Assembly (NCBI GenBank): GCA_964648855.1
Contig: CAZYLT010000004.1
Coordinates: 1 to 32,000 of the forward strand
Direction of reading: 5' to 3'
DNA from: an uncultured archaeon
Lineage (GTDB): Archaea > Asgardarchaeota > Thorarchaeia > Thorarchaeales > Thorarchaeaceae
Length of the DNA: 32,000 nt
Shown piece after piece: positions 16,222 through 26,190 of the stretch (positions within the stretch are counted from its first letter, which is position 1; every line of letters begins with the position of its first letter). The notes below the pieces were generated by a model. That model saw only the letters and a program-made list of their open reading frames with translations, was not told where the DNA came from and searched no databases. The translations under genes and the position numbers were made by a program.

Positions 16222-17822
16222 TGAGTTATCACCTCAATTCGTGCAACATATCGAATCCACCGGGCACCACCGGAGTAATAGATTTCGCAGCCCATGCCTA
16301 GAGAAGATGTGGCAATGCAGTCTTGATTGCTAAATGCTCCGTCAGGTGCAAGCATGGCTATTCGGAAACCTGTATCCCAATCGGGGACCTCCGTTCCATT
16401 GTACTCATAAGCCAAAATCATATCGCCTTGTAATTCTCGCCAAGTTTCATTTGGATACACATTTTGGTAGCTATAGTACTGGGAATAGCCATCATATGCT
16501 GTTACAAGGAGTGTGTTAGTCATCTCCATGTCACCAACCAAGCTAAGCAAGTCGGAAATTTTTACGCCCCTATAGACTCCTTGACCATCCCAATTCCCAA
16601 ATTGATTCTGAAACGATGAAAATGCTTCAACATATGGAAGCTGTTTCAAGTCATCTAACGAAAGAAGAACAGATGATTGAATGCCCTTTACCTCAATCAT
16701 ATTTCTTGGTACATTTGGCTCTGCAATGATTATGGGTTCTATTTGAAGTGAATCCTTCTGAAGTGTGGCGTGTACAAAATGGTGTATGCCGCCCATTTCC
16801 TCCGGTGCTGCCAATGACATGCCTGCACCGCCCGTAATCACATAGGTGACTCCATTGATTACCGTCTTGTTGAACATATGAATATGACCAGAAAAAACAT
16901 AGTCTACGCCCTCTTCTTCGAAGAGAGTCATGAGTCTAGCGGCTATTGCCTGTGACATCGTATGATTCTCGTTGGGTCGAGGATCAAAAGGAGGGATATG
17001 TGTAAAGACTATTTTCAGATCCTTGAGGGTGGTACTGAGGTCATCAAATAACCATTCAAATTCGCTCTCTGAAACCGTGTTTCTTGATGTGTTGAAAACT
17101 GTGAAATGAGCTGAATCTATTTCGAATGAATAAGTAGACGGACCAAACCAGTTTTCGTATCTCTGCCCGCCACTCTCACGTATGTCATGATTTCCTGCAG
17201 TTGTAAAAACCGGAATGGTGGAATTTTCAAGCGCCTCTGAAACTTGCATATATTGGTTATCTTGCCCAAACGGAGTAAGGTCACCACAGTGAAAGAGAAA
17301 ATCAGGTGAAAATGATTTCAAAGCTGTTAGTGTTTCTTGTATCCCACCTTGATATCCTTGGCTGTCCCCTAATGCCACAAACTCAAGAGCAGAGCCACTA
17401 TTGTCAGAAGTGGCATTAATCCAGACCGTGTGATGATTCGGGATGATCTCTACCCTCAATGTTAGGCTGTTTTCCATGGTTGAGATGATGTCATTGTTGG
17501 AGGAAATTGTTGTATTATCGGCAAGTAGATTCTGTATGAGTATTGAGTAAGAACCCGAAGAGAGAGAATCGGACCATAAGAGGGAGATATTCAGTGAGAA
17601 ACCAAGTGCACGAACGATAACAATCTCATCACTCTGGTCGCGAATATGTCCACCATATACATCAATAGCAGTAGGAGGAGTTGTCTGTTGTTGGGTGACC
17701 GAGTATACAATGAAAATACTCGCAGCTACGACAACTAGAAGTATCGCAGCTTTGACTTGTTGTGAGGATGTTATGTGAGATTCCACCTTTGTTTGATTGA
17801 TATGTTTGAGCGTGCATATCAC
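16218..17822 (-). CDS. Membrane-anchored calcineurin-like metallophosphoesterase with C-terminal molybdopterin-oxidoreductase-like domain
   Basis: N-terminal TM anchor; GDSQ, CGDL, GNHD, THIP, SGHIH motifs; C-terminal SLDDLKQLP...YRGVKISDLL...TAYDGYS...MILAYEYNG...WIRYVARIEV. Overlaps the next gene by ATGA; start may be the GTG at 17786. Confidence 0.85.
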   Translation of the reverse strand: MICTLKHINQTKVESHITSSQQVKAAILLVVVAASIFIVYSVTQQQTTPPTAIDVYGGHIRDQSDEIVIVRALGFSLNISLLWSDSLSSGSYSILIQNLLADNTTISSNNDIISTMENSLTLRVEIIPNHHTVWINATSDNSGSALEFVALGDSQGYQGGIQETLTALKSFSPDFLFHCGDLTPFGQDNQYMQVSEALENSTIPVFTTAGNHDIRESGGQRYENWFGPSTYSFEIDSAHFTVFNTSRNTVSESEFEWLFDDLSTTLKDLKIVFTHIPPFDPRPNENHTMSQAIAARLMTLFEEEGVDYVFSGHIHMFNKTVINGVTYVITGGAGMSLAAPEEMGGIHHFVHATLQKDSLQIEPIIIAEPNVPRNMIEVKGIQSSVLLSLDDLKQLPYVEAFSSFQNQFGNWDGQGVYRGVKISDLLSLVGDMEMTNTLLVTAYDGYSQYYSYQNVYPNETWRELQGDMILAYEYNGTEVPDWDTGFRIAMLAPDGAFSNQDCIATSSLGMGCEIYYSGGARWIRYVARIEVITQ

Positions 17823-18986: not shown

Positions 18987-19096
18987 TGGCGGGCGCGCCA
19001 GGATTCGAACCTGGGATGCCCAGCTCCGAAGGCTGGTGCCTTATACGTACCTCCTGCAGAGTAGACTGCGAGGAGTCCATACTAGACTACGCGCCC
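18987..19096 (-). tRNA. tRNA-Arg(UCG) with a 32-nt non-canonical D-loop intron (19045-19076), CCA encoded
   Basis: Removing the insert gives a 78-nt cloverleaf (GGGCGCG/CGCGCCC; CCAGC-CTTCGGA-GCTGG). The junctions form a BHB: central helix GUAU/GUAC, bulges GGA and GUA. Confidence 0.95.
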
Positions 19097-19215: not shown

Positions 19216-19334
19216 GCGGGAGTTGCCAAGACAGGCCAAAGGCGGCGGACTTAAGATCAGATGAAAAATGGGGTCATCAATGAGAGATCCGCTCTCGTAG
19301 GAGTCCGAGGGTTCAAATCCCTCCTCCCGCACCA
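19216..19334 (+). tRNA. tRNA-Leu(UAA) with a 31-nt intron at 37/38 (19256-19286), CCA encoded
   Basis: GCGGGAG/CTCCCGC acceptor, long variable arm, BHB helix CUUA/UGAG with AGA bulges. Confidence 0.95.
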
Positions 19335-19396
19335 TTCTTTTTCGACCAATGCGGTAATTTTATGGGTACTTTGCTGAGCAGAAGGATTGCTTAAAA

Positions 19397-20710
19397 ATGG
19401 GATATCATAACTTAGAATTTCCGGAGAATTTTCTTTGGGGAAGTGCGGCTGCAGCTCACCAAACAGAGGGCGGAAATTTCAATAACTGGAGTGAATGGGA
19501 AAGGATTCCTGGCAAAATCATCGACGGTAGTGATTCCAGTATTGCCTGTGACCACTATAACAGATATGAAGAGGATTTCGATCTGGCCCAGGAACTGGGA
19601 CACCAAGTGCACCGATTTTCAATTGCATGGAGTAGGATTGAACCAGAGCGGAGCAAGTGGGATGAAGGCGAGATTGACCATTATAGATCGGTTCTCCAGG
19701 CGCTTGTTGACAGAGAGATTCAGCCCGTGGTAACATTACACCATTTTACAGAACCGGTCTGGTTCAGAGATTTGGGTTCTTGGTTAAATCCAAATTCTCC
19801 TGAGATTTTCGCGCCATATTGTAGAAAGATAGCTGAAGCGTTCTCTGATTTTGACATCATATGGAACACTATTAACGAGCCTATGGTAGTAACGACAATG
19901 GGCTATGTGTTTGGCGAATTCCCCCCTGAAGAGAAGGACTTCGGAAAGGGACTGACTGTTGCAAAACATCTGCTAATGGCACATGGACAGGCCGCAACAC
20001 AAGTCAGACAAGCCTATGATGAAGTTGGGAAAGAACAACCACAGATTGCCCCCGTTATCAGTGTTTCGCACTTCATGCCAGCCGACCCCGAAAATGAGGA
20101 CGACCTGGAGTTAGTAGAGTATCTAGATGAGATATACAATCATGTTTGGATCAGAGGGGCTATTGATGGAATCCTTCCGGAACCTGCAGGTGACGGAAGC
20201 AGATATCCACCGCTTGATGATTCAGTAGATTTCATAGGTCTGAATTACTATAGCAGAATGGTTGTATCGTCTGAGCTTGATTTCATGGCTGGTGAAATGC
20301 CACCAAAAGACCCCGAACTGGAACGATGTGAAGGCCTAGATTGGGAAGTATATCCAGAGGGATATTATCAGGTATTACGATCATTTGGGGATAAGTATGG
20401 CAGGCCTATCTTTCTAACAGAGAACGGGATAGGGACGAGTGATGATAATGTTCGCCAACGCTATATCATCAACCACCTTCAAGAGGTTCATCGTGCGATC
20501 CAGGATGGAGTCGAGATACTAGGATATCTTGTCTGGTCGCTCACGGACAATTTTGAATGGGCACAGGGGTTCAGTAGTCATTTTGGTCTCGTTGAGATTG
20601 ATTATGATACTTTGGAGAGGAAACCAAAAGAGAGTGCGTATATGTTTAGAGAAATCATAGAGGAAAATGCACTAACGAAGGAAATCCAAGAGAAGTATCT
20701 GCGGGATTAA
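19397..20710 (+). CDS. Glycoside hydrolase family 1 (beta-glucosidase/galactosidase)
   Basis: FLWGSAAAAHQTEG, RFSIAWSRIEP, TINEP (acid/base), TENG (nucleophile), DNFEW. Confidence 0.97.
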   Translation: MGYHNLEFPENFLWGSAAAAHQTEGGNFNNWSEWERIPGKIIDGSDSSIACDHYNRYEEDFDLAQELGHQVHRFSIAWSRIEPERSKWDEGEIDHYRSVLQALVDREIQPVVTLHHFTEPVWFRDLGSWLNPNSPEIFAPYCRKIAEAFSDFDIIWNTINEPMVVTTMGYVFGEFPPEEKDFGKGLTVAKHLLMAHGQAATQVRQAYDEVGKEQPQIAPVISVSHFMPADPENEDDLELVEYLDEIYNHVWIRGAIDGILPEPAGDGSRYPPLDDSVDFIGLNYYSRMVVSSELDFMAGEMPPKDPELERCEGLDWEVYPEGYYQVLRSFGDKYGRPIFLTENGIGTSDDNVRQRYIINHLQEVHRAIQDGVEILGYLVWSLTDNFEWAQGFSSHFGLVEIDYDTLERKPKESAYMFREIIEENALTKEIQEKYLRD

Positions 20711-20717
20711 GATAGAA

Positions 20718-21281
20718 ATGAGTCTTGACGTACTATTCTCTGCAACGGGACTTATTGTTCTCATGGAAATAGGCGACAAGACCATGCTAACTACCATGTG
20801 CCTTAGTGCCCAATACAGGAAACCATGGTTTGTTCTGATGGCATCACTTTCTGCATTAGCTGCTTCTTCCATTATTGCAATATTGTTGGCCGCCCTCCTA
20901 GCAACGGCATTGCCTCTCAATATAATAATCTACATCTCAGGCTTCTTATTTATCGGGCTTGGTGTGTATTCCTTTCTAGGTTTGGACAATGAACAAGAAC
21001 AGAGCTGTGAAAATCGGGGAACAGTATTCAGTATGTTTACACTAATCCTGTTTTCGGAGCTGGGGGATAAGAGTCAGCTGGCAATTCTTGCACTAGCAGT
21101 GCAGTCAGTATTCCCAATCATGGTGCTTTTAGGAGCTATTGTAGGGTTTATCGTAGTCAATGCAATCGGGGTTGTAGTTGGTGATAAAATATCGGCAAAA
21201 TTGCCAATGAGAGGAATTAGAATAAGCACAGGTATCCTTTTCATAGTATTCGGTATTTTCATTCTATTTGGAATTCTATAG
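20718..21281 (+). CDS. TMEM165/GDT1 (UPF0016) Mn2+/Ca2+ transporter
   Basis: Two E-x-G-D-K-[TS] motifs (EIGDKT, ELGDKS) and about 6 TMs. Confidence 0.93.
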   Translation: MSLDVLFSATGLIVLMEIGDKTMLTTMCLSAQYRKPWFVLMASLSALAASSIIAILLAALLATALPLNIIIYISGFLFIGLGVYSFLGLDNEQEQSCENRGTVFSMFTLILFSELGDKSQLAILALAVQSVFPIMVLLGAIVGFIVVNAIGVVVGDKISAKLPMRGIRISTGILFIVFGIFILFGIL

Positions 21282-21342
21282 AAATACGAAGGTTTTATTC
21301 TGATGATTAGCACCTCGAAAATGAGTGGAAGGTGTTGATATA

Positions 21343-22698
21343 ATGAGCTTGGAAGACTCTGGCTACAAAGGCACTCTCTTGAAGAAGCTTGCATCTGCAG
21401 GCATTAAGATGGGTGATAGAGTGCGATTCAGAGATGGTGAAAAGGAAATTGAAGGGATAATAATGCCCCGTAGTCAGATAGGAGCTGATTCACATCATTT
21501 GGTTCTCAAACTAGATAGTGGATACAATTTAGGTCTAAGAGTGAATGAAAACACAACTCTACAGAGGCTCAAGCGCAATGAGATGAAATCTGTTTCACCT
21601 GATGCGGATATTCTAGAAAGTGAGGACTCCAGTCTTCCACATGTTTCAATTCTCAGTACAGGAGGAACTATAGCCAGCAAAGTCGACTATCTTACAGGAG
21701 CTGTAAATCCCGCCCTTACAGCTGAAGACCTCTACGAGTCTGTTCCCGAATTAAGGGAGTATGCGCGGATTGATGCGAGAGTACTGCTTAGCGAGTTATC
21801 AGAGAATATAGAGCCAAAACATTGGTCGAAAATTGCCCGTGCGGTTGCAAAGGAAATTCGAAAGGGAGTGGATGGCGTCGTTGTTGCTCATGGGACAGAT
21901 ACATTGGGCCTAACATCGGCAGCTCTGTCCTTTGCTCTTCAGAACCTTCCTGTACCGTTGGCGTTAGTTGGCGCGCAGCGTTCCTCAGATCGACCGTCTT
22001 CAGATGCCTCGATGAATCTTATTGGTGCAGTAGAACTTGTGGGAAGGTCTGATATTGCGGAAGTTTTAGTGGTAATGCATGGCGAAACGGATGACTCCTA
22101 TGTTTATGCGCACAGAGGAACCAGAGTTCGAAAACTACATACGAGTAGGCGAGATGCATTCAGGACAGTGAATGATTATCCTATTCTGAAAGGGGAGGGA
22201 AAGAATATTGTTGAGATAAGTGCCCCTCTCTTACGTCGCAATTCTAAGAGAAAACTACAAGTGAAACCGAGGTTTGAGGAGAGAGTTGGTCTGGTCAAAA
22301 CATATCCGGGCATATCTGCGGATATTGTAGACCATCTTGTCGATAGAAATTATCGGGGAATAATCATAGAAGGTTCAGGTCTGGGGCACGCACCCACTCG
22401 GATTAATGGCGCCATTGAGCGTGCAATCGAATCTGGATTGGTAGTAGCAATGACTAGTCAGTGTATTTTCGGTCGGGTTGATATGAATGTGTACCGATCC
22501 GGGGTGGAGCTTCTGGATCTCGGTGTTATTCCGTGTGAAGATATGCTCCCTGAAACGGCTCTTGTGAAATTGATGTGGCTGCTAGCTAATCGCAAGGATT
22601 TGGATCAGGTCAAATCTGACTTGACAAAGCCGATGACAGGAGAGATAGAAATGAGGACCGAATATGCAGAATACTTTGATAGACAAGAGGTGGAATGA
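21343..22698 (+). CDS. gatD: Glu-tRNA(Gln) amidotransferase subunit D
   Basis: KLDSGYNLG N-domain, TGGTIAS, HGTDT, QRSSDRPSSD; adjacent to gatE. Confidence 0.97.
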   Translation: MSLEDSGYKGTLLKKLASAGIKMGDRVRFRDGEKEIEGIIMPRSQIGADSHHLVLKLDSGYNLGLRVNENTTLQRLKRNEMKSVSPDADILESEDSSLPHVSILSTGGTIASKVDYLTGAVNPALTAEDLYESVPELREYARIDARVLLSELSENIEPKHWSKIARAVAKEIRKGVDGVVVAHGTDTLGLTSAALSFALQNLPVPLALVGAQRSSDRPSSDASMNLIGAVELVGRSDIAEVLVVMHGETDDSYVYAHRGTRVRKLHTSRRDAFRTVNDYPILKGEGKNIVEISAPLLRRNSKRKLQVKPRFEERVGLVKTYPGISADIVDHLVDRNYRGIIIEGSGLGHAPTRINGAIERAIESGLVVAMTSQCIFGRVDMNVYRSGVELLDLGVIPCEDMLPETALVKLMWLLANRKDLDQVKSDLTKPMTGEIEMRTEYAEYFDRQEVE

Positions 22699-22699
22699 A

Positions 22700-24616
22700 G
22701 TGGCACCCAGCCTGGATTATGATGAATTGGGTTTGATGGTTGGTTTGGAACTTCATCAGCAGTTAGATACTGAGAGAAAGTTATACTGTCACTGCCGCAC
22801 TGTGATTCGAGATGATCAACCACATGGAAGGTTCACCAGACGACTCCGTCCGACCCAAAGTGAGATGGGACAGGTAGACCCGGCTGCATTGTTTGAATTT
22901 CAGCGGAACAAGAGATTCTGTTACGAATTCTATAATGATACAACCTGTCTAGTAGAAGCAGATGAAGAGCCCCCACACAGCATTGATGAGGAATCCATAG
23001 ATATCTGTCTCACAATGGCGAGCTTTTTGGAATCAACGCCTGTTGACGAAATTCATCCGATGAGAAAGATAGTAATTGATGGAAGTAACACGACCGGATT
23101 TCAGAGAACATGTATTATTGCAAGAGGTGGAAAGATTCGAGTTGGAAAGAAAGGAATAGGCATACAGACTATTTGTCTTGAAGAAGACGCTGCAAGGAAA
23201 ATCGCTGATGATGCGAGAGAGAATGTTACGACATATAGATTGGATAGACTGGGAATTCCATTGATAGAGGTTGCAACGGCACCCGATATCAATACGCCTA
23301 GAGAGGCAGAAGACGTTGCATTGGCCTTGGGTATTTTGCTGCGGTCCACAGGGAAAGTAAAACGAGGGCTGGGAACCATACGTCAGGATGTGAATGTATC
23401 AATTGAAGGAGGGGGTATAATTGAGATAAAGGGGTTGCAGCAGCTTGCATTGCTATCAACAGTTGTGGAGCTAGAGGCAATACGACAAAAGAATCTCCTG
23501 CAAATACAAAAGGAATTAGAGAAGCGAAATGTGACAATTGAAGCAATAGAAGACCAAATCTATGACGTGACGGACATATTTGATAAATCCGATTCGAAGG
23601 TTATCAAAAGTGCTATGGAAAAAGGCGGTCGAGTCAAAGCTGTAAAGCTTCCTGCATTTGCAGAATTGGTAGGAAAAGAGATACAGCCCAACCGAAGACT
23701 AGGAAGTGAGCTATCCGACTATGCGAACTTTTGGGGTGACGTCGGAGGAATATTCCATACAGATGAGCTTCCCAAATATGGAATCACACAACGTAATGTT
23801 GACGAAGTCAGGAAATCGGTTTCAGCAGATGGCAATGACGCAGTCATAATTGTCGCTGCCCCTGAAAAGAACTGCAATGATGCGCTTAGGGCGGTCTTGG
23901 ACCGTGCACGAGAAACAATTCTCGGAGTTCCAGCTGAAACACGCACCCCTCTTTCTGATGGCACAACCAAATACGCTAGACCTCGACCGGGTGCAGAGAG
24001 AATGTATCCAGAAACTGATGTGAGAGCTGTTGTTATCGACAAAGAACGTATCAGAAAAATAGAGAAGAACCTGCCCGAAAAATTGGAGGAGAGGAGAACC
24101 CGTTTTATTCGACAGCATGGGTTAAGTGAAGAGCTGGCTGGTCAGATCACCAGATCATTGAATATTGATTTGTACGAAGAGATCGTTGATGTTGTTGATA
24201 TCTCTCCCACACTTGTAGCAGTTACACTAGAGAATACTATGGTCAGTCTCAACAGGGATGATGTGCCTACGGAAAACATTCCAGAAAACCAGATTGTCGC
24301 CATTTTTGAAGAGGTCTCATCAGGTGATATATCTCCGGAGGCAATTCCTGACATGTTGACTTTTTTTGCCAATAATCCGGAGGCAAGCTTCGAAGAGGCG
24401 CTATCGAAAACGGGATTGGAAAAAATTGAGGAAGAACAGGTTTCTGGTTATATCAGGAACTTGGTGAAGGAACGGAAGGACTTTGTCGAGAGGGAGGGAA
24501 GGCGGGCAATAGGCGGCCTCATGGGAGTTGCTATGAAAGAGCTTCATGGAAAGGCAGATGGAAAACGGGTAAGAGAATTACTCATGGAAGAAATCCGGAA
24601 GTTAACATCTGACTGA
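22700..24616 (+). CDS. gatE: Glu-tRNA(Gln) amidotransferase subunit E
   Basis: GLELHQQL, DEEPPH, RKIVIDGSNTTGFQRT, RGLGTIRQD, RMYPETD; GTG at 22700 with GAGGTG SD. Confidence 0.97.
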   Translation: MAPSLDYDELGLMVGLELHQQLDTERKLYCHCRTVIRDDQPHGRFTRRLRPTQSEMGQVDPAALFEFQRNKRFCYEFYNDTTCLVEADEEPPHSIDEESIDICLTMASFLESTPVDEIHPMRKIVIDGSNTTGFQRTCIIARGGKIRVGKKGIGIQTICLEEDAARKIADDARENVTTYRLDRLGIPLIEVATAPDINTPREAEDVALALGILLRSTGKVKRGLGTIRQDVNVSIEGGGIIEIKGLQQLALLSTVVELEAIRQKNLLQIQKELEKRNVTIEAIEDQIYDVTDIFDKSDSKVIKSAMEKGGRVKAVKLPAFAELVGKEIQPNRRLGSELSDYANFWGDVGGIFHTDELPKYGITQRNVDEVRKSVSADGNDAVIIVAAPEKNCNDALRAVLDRARETILGVPAETRTPLSDGTTKYARPRPGAERMYPETDVRAVVIDKERIRKIEKNLPEKLEERRTRFIRQHGLSEELAGQITRSLNIDLYEEIVDVVDISPTLVAVTLENTMVSLNRDDVPTENIPENQIVAIFEEVSSGDISPEAIPDMLTFFANNPEASFEEALSKTGLEKIEEEQVSGYIRNLVKERKDFVEREGRRAIGGLMGVAMKELHGKADGKRVRELLMEEIRKLTSD

Positions 24617-24655
24617 GTATTGTAGTGTGAAGCGTAACTTTAATAGAGAAATCAA

Positions 24656-24700
24656 GCGGTGGGCACCGATGAGAGGGCTTTGCTCCTTTCTGACTAACGC
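24656..24700 (+). ncRNA. Candidate kink-turn (box C/D-like) hairpin in the tRNA-Met leader
   Basis: CGATGA ... CTGA with an internal stem GAGAGGG/TCCTTTC, lying between TTTAATA (24639-24645) and the tRNA. Confidence 0.3.
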
Positions 24701-24702
24701 GT

Positions 24703-24836
24703 GCCGCAGTGGCCTAGCCTGGTTAGGGCGCGAGACTCATAATCTGTCCATAATGGACTAATAATGGGGTCATACGTCTCGGGCCTCGAGATGAGACATC
24801 TCGAAGTCGAGGGCTCGAATCCCTCCTGCGGCACCA
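24703..24836 (+). tRNA. Elongator tRNA-Met(CAU) with a 56-nt intron at 37/38 (24742-24797), CCA encoded
   Basis: GCCGCAG/CTGCGGC acceptor (G1, so not the initiator); BHB CUCA/UGAG with bulges UAA and ACA and outer helix UCU/AGA. Confidence 0.94.
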
Positions 24837-24975
24837 AACTGTCGTTCGTTGCAAAGTCATTGACGCGTGTGCAGACACATTTTTGAGTGGATGTAGGTTA
24901 GAGTGATTGTGGATAGGTTATGTTGTGAACTAACCATCCTCTAGTATTGGAAATAGGACTTTGTGGTGAAAAGAG

Positions 24976-26190
24976 ATGAGTTTGCCCTTCAAGACATTGG
25001 ACGACGTGGAGTATGCAGGCAAGAAAATCCTCATGCGAGCTGACATGAATTGTTCTGTCAATTCCGAAACAAAGGAGATCACTGACAGCTCTAGGATAGA
25101 GGCGATCCTTCCGACGCTTGAGGATTTGTCCAAGAGTGGTGTTGCATTGATGGCACACCAGGGGAGGCCTGGGAGTGATGATTTCATTTCATTGCAGCCA
25201 CATACAGAGATTCTGCAGGATTTGGAAGTAAACGCCAGTTTTGTTGATGATATCTTCGGTGAGAAGGCCAAGTCAGCAATAAAAAACTTGGACATAGGAG
25301 AAGTCCTTGTTCTTCAAAATGTCAGGTATTTTGATGGTGAATTAAAGAAGGCGCCAGTTGAGGAAGTAGCCAAAGAACCGTTGGTACAAGAGCTATATCC
25401 TCTGTTTGATCTATTTGTAAATGACGCATTTGGCGCGGCTCATAGATCACAGGCATCTCTGGTAGGATTCACGCCGTATCTCCCATCAGTGGCAGGGAGA
25501 CTTATGGAAAAAGAAATCCGCACACTGAGCAAGGCTGTTGACACAGAGAAGCACCCTTGGACTCTTGTGTTGGGTGGCGCAAAAGTAGAAGATAAAGTAA
25601 AGACATTAGAGAAACTGCTGAAGACAGGAAGAGTCGACCATGCCTTGCTTGGTGGTCTTGTAGCCACTGCTCTATTGGTTTCAAGTGGAAAAATAGCCAA
25701 GGAATACTCCAAGCCTATTGGCAGTTTTGATTCAATCAGTGATTCTGCTAAGACATTGTTAGAGGAGTATGCGGACATTATCGTGCTTCCAACTGATGCA
25801 GCTGTCGAGAGAGATGAGTCTCGTGTAGATTCCTCGTTTGATGAAATGAATGAAGATCCATTCTATGATATTGGCAAAGAAACAATGAAGGTGTTCGAAG
25901 ATATCATAGGAAAGTCTGCCGTTGTATTTGCGAACGGACCTATGGGGCTCTTTGAAAAGGAACCGTTTGCCTTGGGAACGGAGAAGGTTCTTCGTGCGAT
26001 TGCAGCCATTGATGGCGTTACGGTTGTGGGTGGTGGGCATCTTGGAGCCATGGCCAGAGAGATGGAATTAGAGAGGCAGGTGTCCCATATAAGCACCGGC
26101 GGTGGATCCACTATAAATTTCCTCACCGGAAAGAAACTTGAAGTAGTTCAAGCCTTGGAGAAGGCTGCAGAACGCATGGACACGAGATGA
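24976..26190 (+). CDS. pgk: Phosphoglycerate kinase
   Basis: RADMN, AHQGRPG, NVRY, NDAFGAAHRS, LGGAKV, NGPMG, GGGH, STGGG. Confidence 0.97.
   Translation: MSLPFKTLDDVEYAGKKILMRADMNCSVNSETKEITDSSRIEAILPTLEDLSKSGVALMAHQGRPGSDDFISLQPHTEILQDLEVNASFVDDIFGEKAKSAIKNLDIGEVLVLQNVRYFDGELKKAPVEEVAKEPLVQELYPLFDLFVNDAFGAAHRSQASLVGFTPYLPSVAGRLMEKEIRTLSKAVDTEKHPWTLVLGGAKVEDKVKTLEKLLKTGRVDHALLGGLVATALLVSSGKIAKEYSKPIGSFDSISDSAKTLLEEYADIIVLPTDAAVERDESRVDSSFDEMNEDPFYDIGKETMKVFEDIIGKSAVVFANGPMGLFEKEPFALGTEKVLRAIAAIDGVTVVGGGHLGAMAREMELERQVSHISTGGGSTINFLTGKKLEVVQALEKAAERMDTR

Follow-up and report, generated by a model that had tools for sequence, protein, structure and literature searches.

Why two short introns of different tRNA genes should carry an identical internal sequence is the question raised by a 32,000-nucleotide stretch of DNA from an uncultured archaeon of the Thorarchaeaceae, Asgardarchaeota (contig CAZYLT010000004.1, positions 1 to 32,000; hereafter the window). 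Its plus strand holds the genes of pre-tRNA-Leu(UAA) (19216..19334) and of the elongator pre-tRNA-Met(CAU) (24703..24836), both identified by ARAGORN with introns allowed and by Rfam RF00005, and each interrupted by an intron between nucleotides 37 and 38. An exact 11-mer common to the two introns, as an earlier note on this DNA had reported, was located at 19267-19277 and 24763-24773, and no third match exists in the window even when one mismatch is allowed. Three further copies occur in the 3.1-Mb genome, none of them inside a detected tRNA, and shuffled introns yielded a common 11-mer in 2 of 20000 trials. The persistence of tRNA introns is a long-standing question. Most archaeal tRNA introns have no known sequence-specific role beyond the bulge-helix-bulge (BHB) element. 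We propose, with a probability of about 0.72, that the shared sequence marks a docking site for a single box C/D guide RNA, which would methylate the wobble riboses of several pre-tRNAs before they are spliced.

The intron tag and its box C/D guide

The Leu(UAA) intron is 31 nt long (19256..19286, plus strand) and the Met(CAU) intron 56 nt (24742..24797, plus strand). In the latter, reading 5' to 3', ATC is followed by a hairpin, an A-rich linker, the shared sequence, a second hairpin and the BHB helix partner UGAG (24792-24795). In the former, UGAG lies at 19281-19284, and folding recovers the hairpin with the run of G residues in its loop that had been described before. A likeness of the two introns at their starts and ends had also been pointed out. 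The likeness is present, but the common ATGAG end is not independent evidence because its UGAG has bases 32-35 as partners in the BHB helix. The common ATC start is a repeat of exon nucleotides 38-40, and the D-guide site discussed below has it as its 3' part.

A search of the genome for a complement of the shared sequence beside a complement of the anticodon loop, along the lines that the earlier note had suggested, returned one candidate with C and D boxes. This small RNA (sRNA) is encoded outside the window, at contig C4:73618-73693 (plus strand), between tRNA-Gly(CCC) and cdc6, and its gene is single-copy in the source genome. It opens with a terminal stem and box C, followed by an 11-nt D' guide that includes UGACCCC and by box D'; a short hairpin then separates this half from box C', a 12-nt D guide that includes GAUCUUGAGU, and box D. 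Features of archaeal box C/D RNAs are present, namely a terminal stem in kink-turn register, a C'/D' motif and two guides. The D' guide forms 9 Watson-Crick pairs with each intron of the window, at 19269..19277 in Leu(UAA) (conserved core 19270-19276) and at 24765..24773 in Met (conserved core 24766-24772), both on the plus strand. We refer to these paired stretches as the tag. The base at N+5 from box D', the fifth position counted from the box, is G19273 in the Leu tag and G24769 in the Met tag.

Homologues of the sRNA were found by blastn in most genomes of the host's family, and covariance models matched 26 of 26 family genomes and 108 of 151 genomes of the phylum (E<=0.1). These methods replaced a strict guide pattern, which was dropped after it matched only 2 of 86 genomes; such a pattern fails because boxes D and D' are degenerate, box D being NNGA in most Thorarchaeia and CUGA in the source genome. 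Among the homologues, the terminal stem is 95.6% paired, the internal stem 100% paired and the GA steps invariant. The C6-D1 pair covaries, with 4 double changes in 26 sequences, as do the stems, and the D' guide is 10-13 nt long, mostly 11. Against the Rfam family snoPyro_CD (RF00095), the homologue of genome G152 scores 45.6 bits (gathering threshold 45) and other homologues 18-40 bits, while the source genome's own copy gives only weak C/D matches. Fibrillarin, Nop5 and L7Ae-family genes are encoded, the last as two matches that are not separable from L30e. It is noted that the sRNA gene lies ~50 nt downstream of tRNA-Gly(CCC), a linkage that recurs in many family genomes and in families f2 and f12, and that the two may be co-transcribed. 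In Thorarchaeia, a conserved 11-nt element lies just 3' of the guide, and its opposite strand resembles an archaeal promoter with a B recognition element and TATA box.

Alignment of orthologous introns in the host's family narrows the motif first described. A 7-nt core, GGGGUCA, is present in 76 of 77 Met(CAU) introns, the lone exception still pairing with the guide via G-U, and in 59 of 62 Leu(UAA) introns. The complete 11-mer occurs in only 6 of the 77 Met and 4 of the 62 Leu(UAA) introns; its AAT prefix belongs to an A/T-rich linker and falls outside the signal because flanking positions are 29-77% conserved, compared with 94-100% for those of the core. Trp(CCA) is a third tagged tRNA, with the full core in 46 of 60 family loci and GGGUCR in 60 of 60, and the Trp(CCA) gene of the source genome carries the core (contig position about 139012, minus strand). 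This gene (C4 about 138950-139055, minus strand) was missed by ARAGORN, has apparently further introns in addition to the tagged 37/38 intron, and lies ~2.5 kb from a nop5-fibrillarin gene pair (C4 about 134.5-136.5 kb). Running ARAGORN at a low threshold with long introns gave an output that was mostly noise, and this approach was abandoned.

Across the Asgard phylum, the D-guide core is nearly fixed, the D' guide differs by family, and the Met-intron tag changes with the D' guide. For 14 families, with the intron window fixed at 40 nt, pairing between the D' guide and the Met intron of the same genome averages 8.2 Watson-Crick pairs and -16.4 kcal/mol, compared with 5.5 pairs and -11.3 kcal/mol when family labels are permuted (p<=5e-6, a value that overstates independence, as the families are related and several have one tag type in common). 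Families f20, f17, f18 and f25 have their own guide versions, each with a matching tag. Within f5, one-base guide differences of G206 and G162 are matched by their introns, and within f9, a compensated pair sets G130 apart from G154. The best D' helix also exceeds that of shuffled introns for Met (8.8 vs 4.3 pairs) and Leu(UAA) (8.4 vs 4.0) and equals it for Leu(CAA) (3.7 vs 3.7). A docking site for a trans-acting guide was one of two explanations that had been offered for the shared motif. With a core kept in orthologous introns, a complementary guide, and covariation between them across Asgard families, the pairing of tag and D' guide itself is very probably genuine.

The D arm and nucleotide 34

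The other arm of the sRNA is directed at the anticodon loop. The fifth base upstream of box D (N+5) faces nucleotide 34 in all four tRNAs considered here, Leu(CAA), Leu(UAA), Met(CAU) and Trp(CCA). On Leu(CAA), the D guide forms 10 contiguous Watson-Crick pairs with C34 at N+5, within the rule of at least 9 pairs. The core of the guide is the complement of the substrate oligonucleotide of Pyrococcus abyssi sR47, an RNA that guides 2'-O-methylation of C34 (Cm34) of Leu(CAA) in vitro (PMC3413156). This core is constant in nearly all Asgard homologues, two one-base variants being known, and an identical D guide is also found in matches from Theionarchaea and Bathyarchaeia. In the window, the D-guide site covers 19248..19259 (plus strand) on pre-tRNA-Leu(UAA), where U34 is 19252, and 24734..24745 (plus strand) on pre-tRNA-Met, where C34 is 24738 and pairs with the G at N+5. 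In the source genome, a search for further D guides that would match Met or Leu(UAA) perfectly found none. The tag is found where the D duplex is imperfect, in Met, Leu(UAA) and Trp, and is absent from Leu(CAA), with the core in 0 of 35 introns of the family.

Colinear binding of both arms needs a D site 5' of the tag, which is the order observed. Raw spacers between the two sites measure 5-29 nt, and the extra length folds into a hairpin; once this is collapsed, the median number of unpaired spacer bases is 7 for Met and 10 for Leu. In families f9 and f20, the Met intron begins with ATC although exon nucleotides 38-40 do not have this sequence. Such a start would fit D-arm pairing to the precursor. 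It is suggestive only, since the intron pattern searches demanded ATC after the anticodon and its invariance cannot be read from them.

These features, legible in the genomes themselves, suggest the following model. The D arm would be tailored to tRNA-Leu(CAA), with nucleotide 34 placed at N+5. The precursors of tRNA-Met(CAU), of tRNA-Leu(UAA) and, in Thorarchaeia, of tRNA-Trp(CCA) fit this arm only in part, and their intron tag, pairing over 7-11 nt, would be where the D' arm of a single box C/D ribonucleoprotein (RNP), made up of the sRNA, L7Ae, Nop5 and fibrillarin, lands. From the D-arm site, a short single-stranded linker on its 3' side would lead to the tag. Such a two-arm grip on the precursor could offset the weak D duplex and could help to open up the BHB helix, in which bases 32-35 are buried; position 34 would be 2'-O-methylated before splicing takes the tag away. 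We infer here that the sRNA is expressed and assembled into an RNP, that both arms bind simultaneously, and that methylation takes place and precedes splicing. Weak guides are believed to gain stability when both of their arms bind within 100 nt (PMC6009581), and in yeast, extra pairing on rRNA boosts methylation up to five-fold (PMC3116282).

Counter-evidence and alternative explanations

Several observations weigh against wobble methylation of the tagged tRNAs by this guide. The D arm forms 5+3 pairs with Met, with mismatches at 36 and 37, and 3+5 pairs with Trp, with one mismatch at 35, next to the target. In Leu(UAA), U34 faces the guide G at N+5 in a G-U pair. All three duplexes fall short of the usual rule of nine contiguous pairs. 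The Watson-Crick pair at N+5 is reported to be essential (PMC6009581), so that methylation of U34 in Leu(UAA) is our weakest prediction. The distribution of the tag has exceptions as well. Leu(UAA) is intronless in 13 family genomes, the Leu(UAA) introns of several Asgard families lack a tag (it is weak or absent in f19, f22 and f6), and so does one Met intron, of 15 nt, in G182; the tag is therefore not universally needed. In f4, its match to the D' guide is bulged. Caution is advisable in view of the G-U pair at U34 of Leu(UAA) and the mismatched positions of Met and Trp.

The alternative that survives best accepts the docking and gives it another purpose: the RNP would chaperone, time or gate splicing, or would methylate the intron base at D' N+5, and the D arm would methylate only Leu(CAA). 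It would be in keeping with a D' duplex, mostly of 8-11 pairs, that is longer and cleaner than the D duplex on tagged tRNAs, with a D' N+5 position that is Watson-Crick paired in 43 of 44 Met sequences scored (one of the 44 was mis-extracted), and with the G-U pair of Leu(UAA). Conserved guide-target pairings without methylation are also known (PMC6009581). However, the tag is limited to tRNAs with an anticodon loop that suits the D arm in the position-34 register, and the tRNA with the perfect fit lacks it. At D' N+5, the intron has G in most families but C in f20, and Pyrococcus C/D guides are known or predicted to 2'-O-methylate the wobble nucleotides of Leu, Met and Trp (PMC7994747). On balance, we consider it unlikely that wobble methylation of the tagged tRNAs is not the task of the docked guide.

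It is much less likely that an rRNA target maintains the D' guide, or that the tag binds a protein, with the match between tag and guide being secondary. Archaeal C/D guides mostly target rRNA, and no 23S rRNA could be located in the assembly, but in the part of the rRNA locus that was searched, the 1.5-kb region around the 16S anchor, there is no match to the core. Moreover, the family-specific differences of the D' guide are mirrored base for base in the introns, a correspondence that would be needed neither for a conserved rRNA site nor for a protein.

Least credible of all is that the motif is a functionless relic of intron transfer between tRNA genes, the other explanation offered earlier: archaeal tRNA introns are known to transpose, the Leu and Met introns are alike in position, start, end and tag, and the presence of the Leu(UAA) intron is patchy, but the core is far better conserved than its flanks, Met and Leu flanks of one genome resemble each other no more than those of different genomes do (4.75 vs 4.46 of 12 nt, p=0.23), and the tag follows changes in an unlinked RNA across families. 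Intron transfer is thus largely refuted as the reason for the conservation of the motif and is not supported as the reason for its present identity; it may account for the origin or first spread of the tag.

Known guides and other tRNA genes

The docking of a two-armed wobble guide on introns, which we prefer, has partial parallels in known systems. P. abyssi sR47 has the same D-guide core, the same N+5 register on C34 of Leu(CAA) and the standard archaeal C/D layout, but intron docking by its second arm is not described (PMC3413156). The comparison concerns the D guide; Rfam scans of the sRNA and its homologues gave no match to an sR47 family. In Pyrococcus, four separate sRNAs serve Leu(CAA), Leu(UAA), Met and Trp (PMC7994747), whereas one RNA apparently serves all four here.

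The earlier note had mentioned C/D-guided wobble methylation of intron-containing pre-tRNA-Met in haloarchaea. This precedent, haloarchaeal sR-tMet and its Pyrococcus counterpart sR49 (PMC2584109, supplement 5), holds insofar as a trans-acting C/D guide is directed at C34 of elongator tRNA-Met in the unspliced precursor, with a D duplex that extends into the first intron bases, as it also does for the Asgard guide. It does not hold for the division of labour between the arms. The D guide of sR-tMet and sR49 is perfect over the Met anticodon loop and intron start, a trait absent from the Asgard guide, and their D' guide is variable without a stated target; in contrast, the Asgard D guide mismatches Met, and its D' guide pairs deep in the intron and covaries with it. 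The intron-encoded sR50 of euryarchaeal pre-tRNA-Trp likewise involves a tRNA intron in C/D-guided Cm34 formation, but there the intron itself is the guide. The Asgard guide has its own gene, and the short Trp, Met and Leu introns (31 and 56 nt in the window, with family Trp introns similarly short) would be its docking targets.

A second nearby pairing strengthens the contact between guide and target in dual-guide archaeal sRNAs (PMC6009581) and in the extra base-pairing of yeast (PMC3116282). In those cases it involves rRNA or mature tRNA sequence, whereas the second site in Asgard archaea would be a disposable intron tag of several tRNAs. According to reviews, the second arm of archaeal tRNA guides is usually targetless, or orphan (PMC7994747); here, such an apparently orphan arm gains a target. 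Human SNORD97/SCARNA97, which direct Cm34 of elongator tRNA-Met (PMC6601510), are alike in RNA-guided methylation of the wobble ribose but without a described intron tag, a likeness of function.

C/D guides for wobble positions are thus already known, and the new element is that the second arm of a box C/D sRNA recognises a tag carried by tRNA introns. No description of D'-arm docking on tRNA introns was found in the literature searched, which excluded most subscription papers. Throughout the phylum, intron sequence is under selection for pairing with an RNA encoded elsewhere, unlinked to the introns, which suggests a route by which one guide could widen its range with its catalytic arm unchanged. 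We also think it reasonably probable, with somewhat less confidence than in the wobble-methylation model above, that short Asgard tRNA introns act as removable address labels: gain of a tagged intron would enrol a pre-tRNA with the shared C/D guide, and methylation of the Met, Leu(UAA) and Trp wobble riboses would be intron-dependent and would precede splicing. If true, tRNA introns would have a selected function in the closest relatives of eukaryotes. The Asgard guide may also have a bearing on where the RNA-guided wobble methylation of eukaryotic tRNAs came from, and the idea is open to test in the archaeal C/D RNP system already available in vitro.

Other tRNA genes show related or contrasting features. 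Many Leu(CAA) introns of the family have another short motif, RACUCC-like, directly before the BHB partner, and a locus of this type lies at C19 about 16700-16830 (minus strand) of the source genome; the motif might pair with the 3' GAG, leaving the anticodon loop free. In the Atabeyarchaeia G107, G117 and G036, Leu(UAA) has no 37/38 intron, and an insert in the variable-arm region has a bulged match to the D' guide, unlike the Leu(CAA) inserts of these archaea. G165 and G111 each have two tRNA genes with a CAU anticodon, and both carry tag-like introns. The intron of tRNA-Gly(GCC) (C11:893-1000, minus strand) holds an 8-nt match to the tag. A pattern search of 5 relatives found no intron-bearing Gly(GCC) orthologue, and the D arm, judged by eye, did not fit this tRNA. 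The single Bathyarchaeote Met intron looked at has an sR49-type start and no tag, which is too little to delimit the range of the tag.

Within the window, a GH1 beta-glycosidase, gatD, gatE and a phosphoglycerate kinase-like gene (19397-26190) lie between and after the two tagged tRNA genes, whose linkage is found again in many genomes of the host's family. The best match of the window's GatE, at 89%, is to Thorarchaeota proteins, in line with an Asgard source. The leader of tRNA-Met (24660-24702) contains a C/D-like stretch common only to a same-genus genome, where the D-like box differs. A tRNA-Sec (UCA) gene is predicted by ARAGORN at C6:55144-55234 (minus strand) of the source genome. Divergent from tRNA-Leu(UAA), at 18987-19096 (minus strand), is a tRNA-Arg(ACG) gene with an intron in the D-arm region. 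An ACG anticodon, with A at position 34, is unusual in archaea; tRNA-Arg(ACG) is found in genome G001 too, alongside a distinct Arg(GCG) gene on C10.

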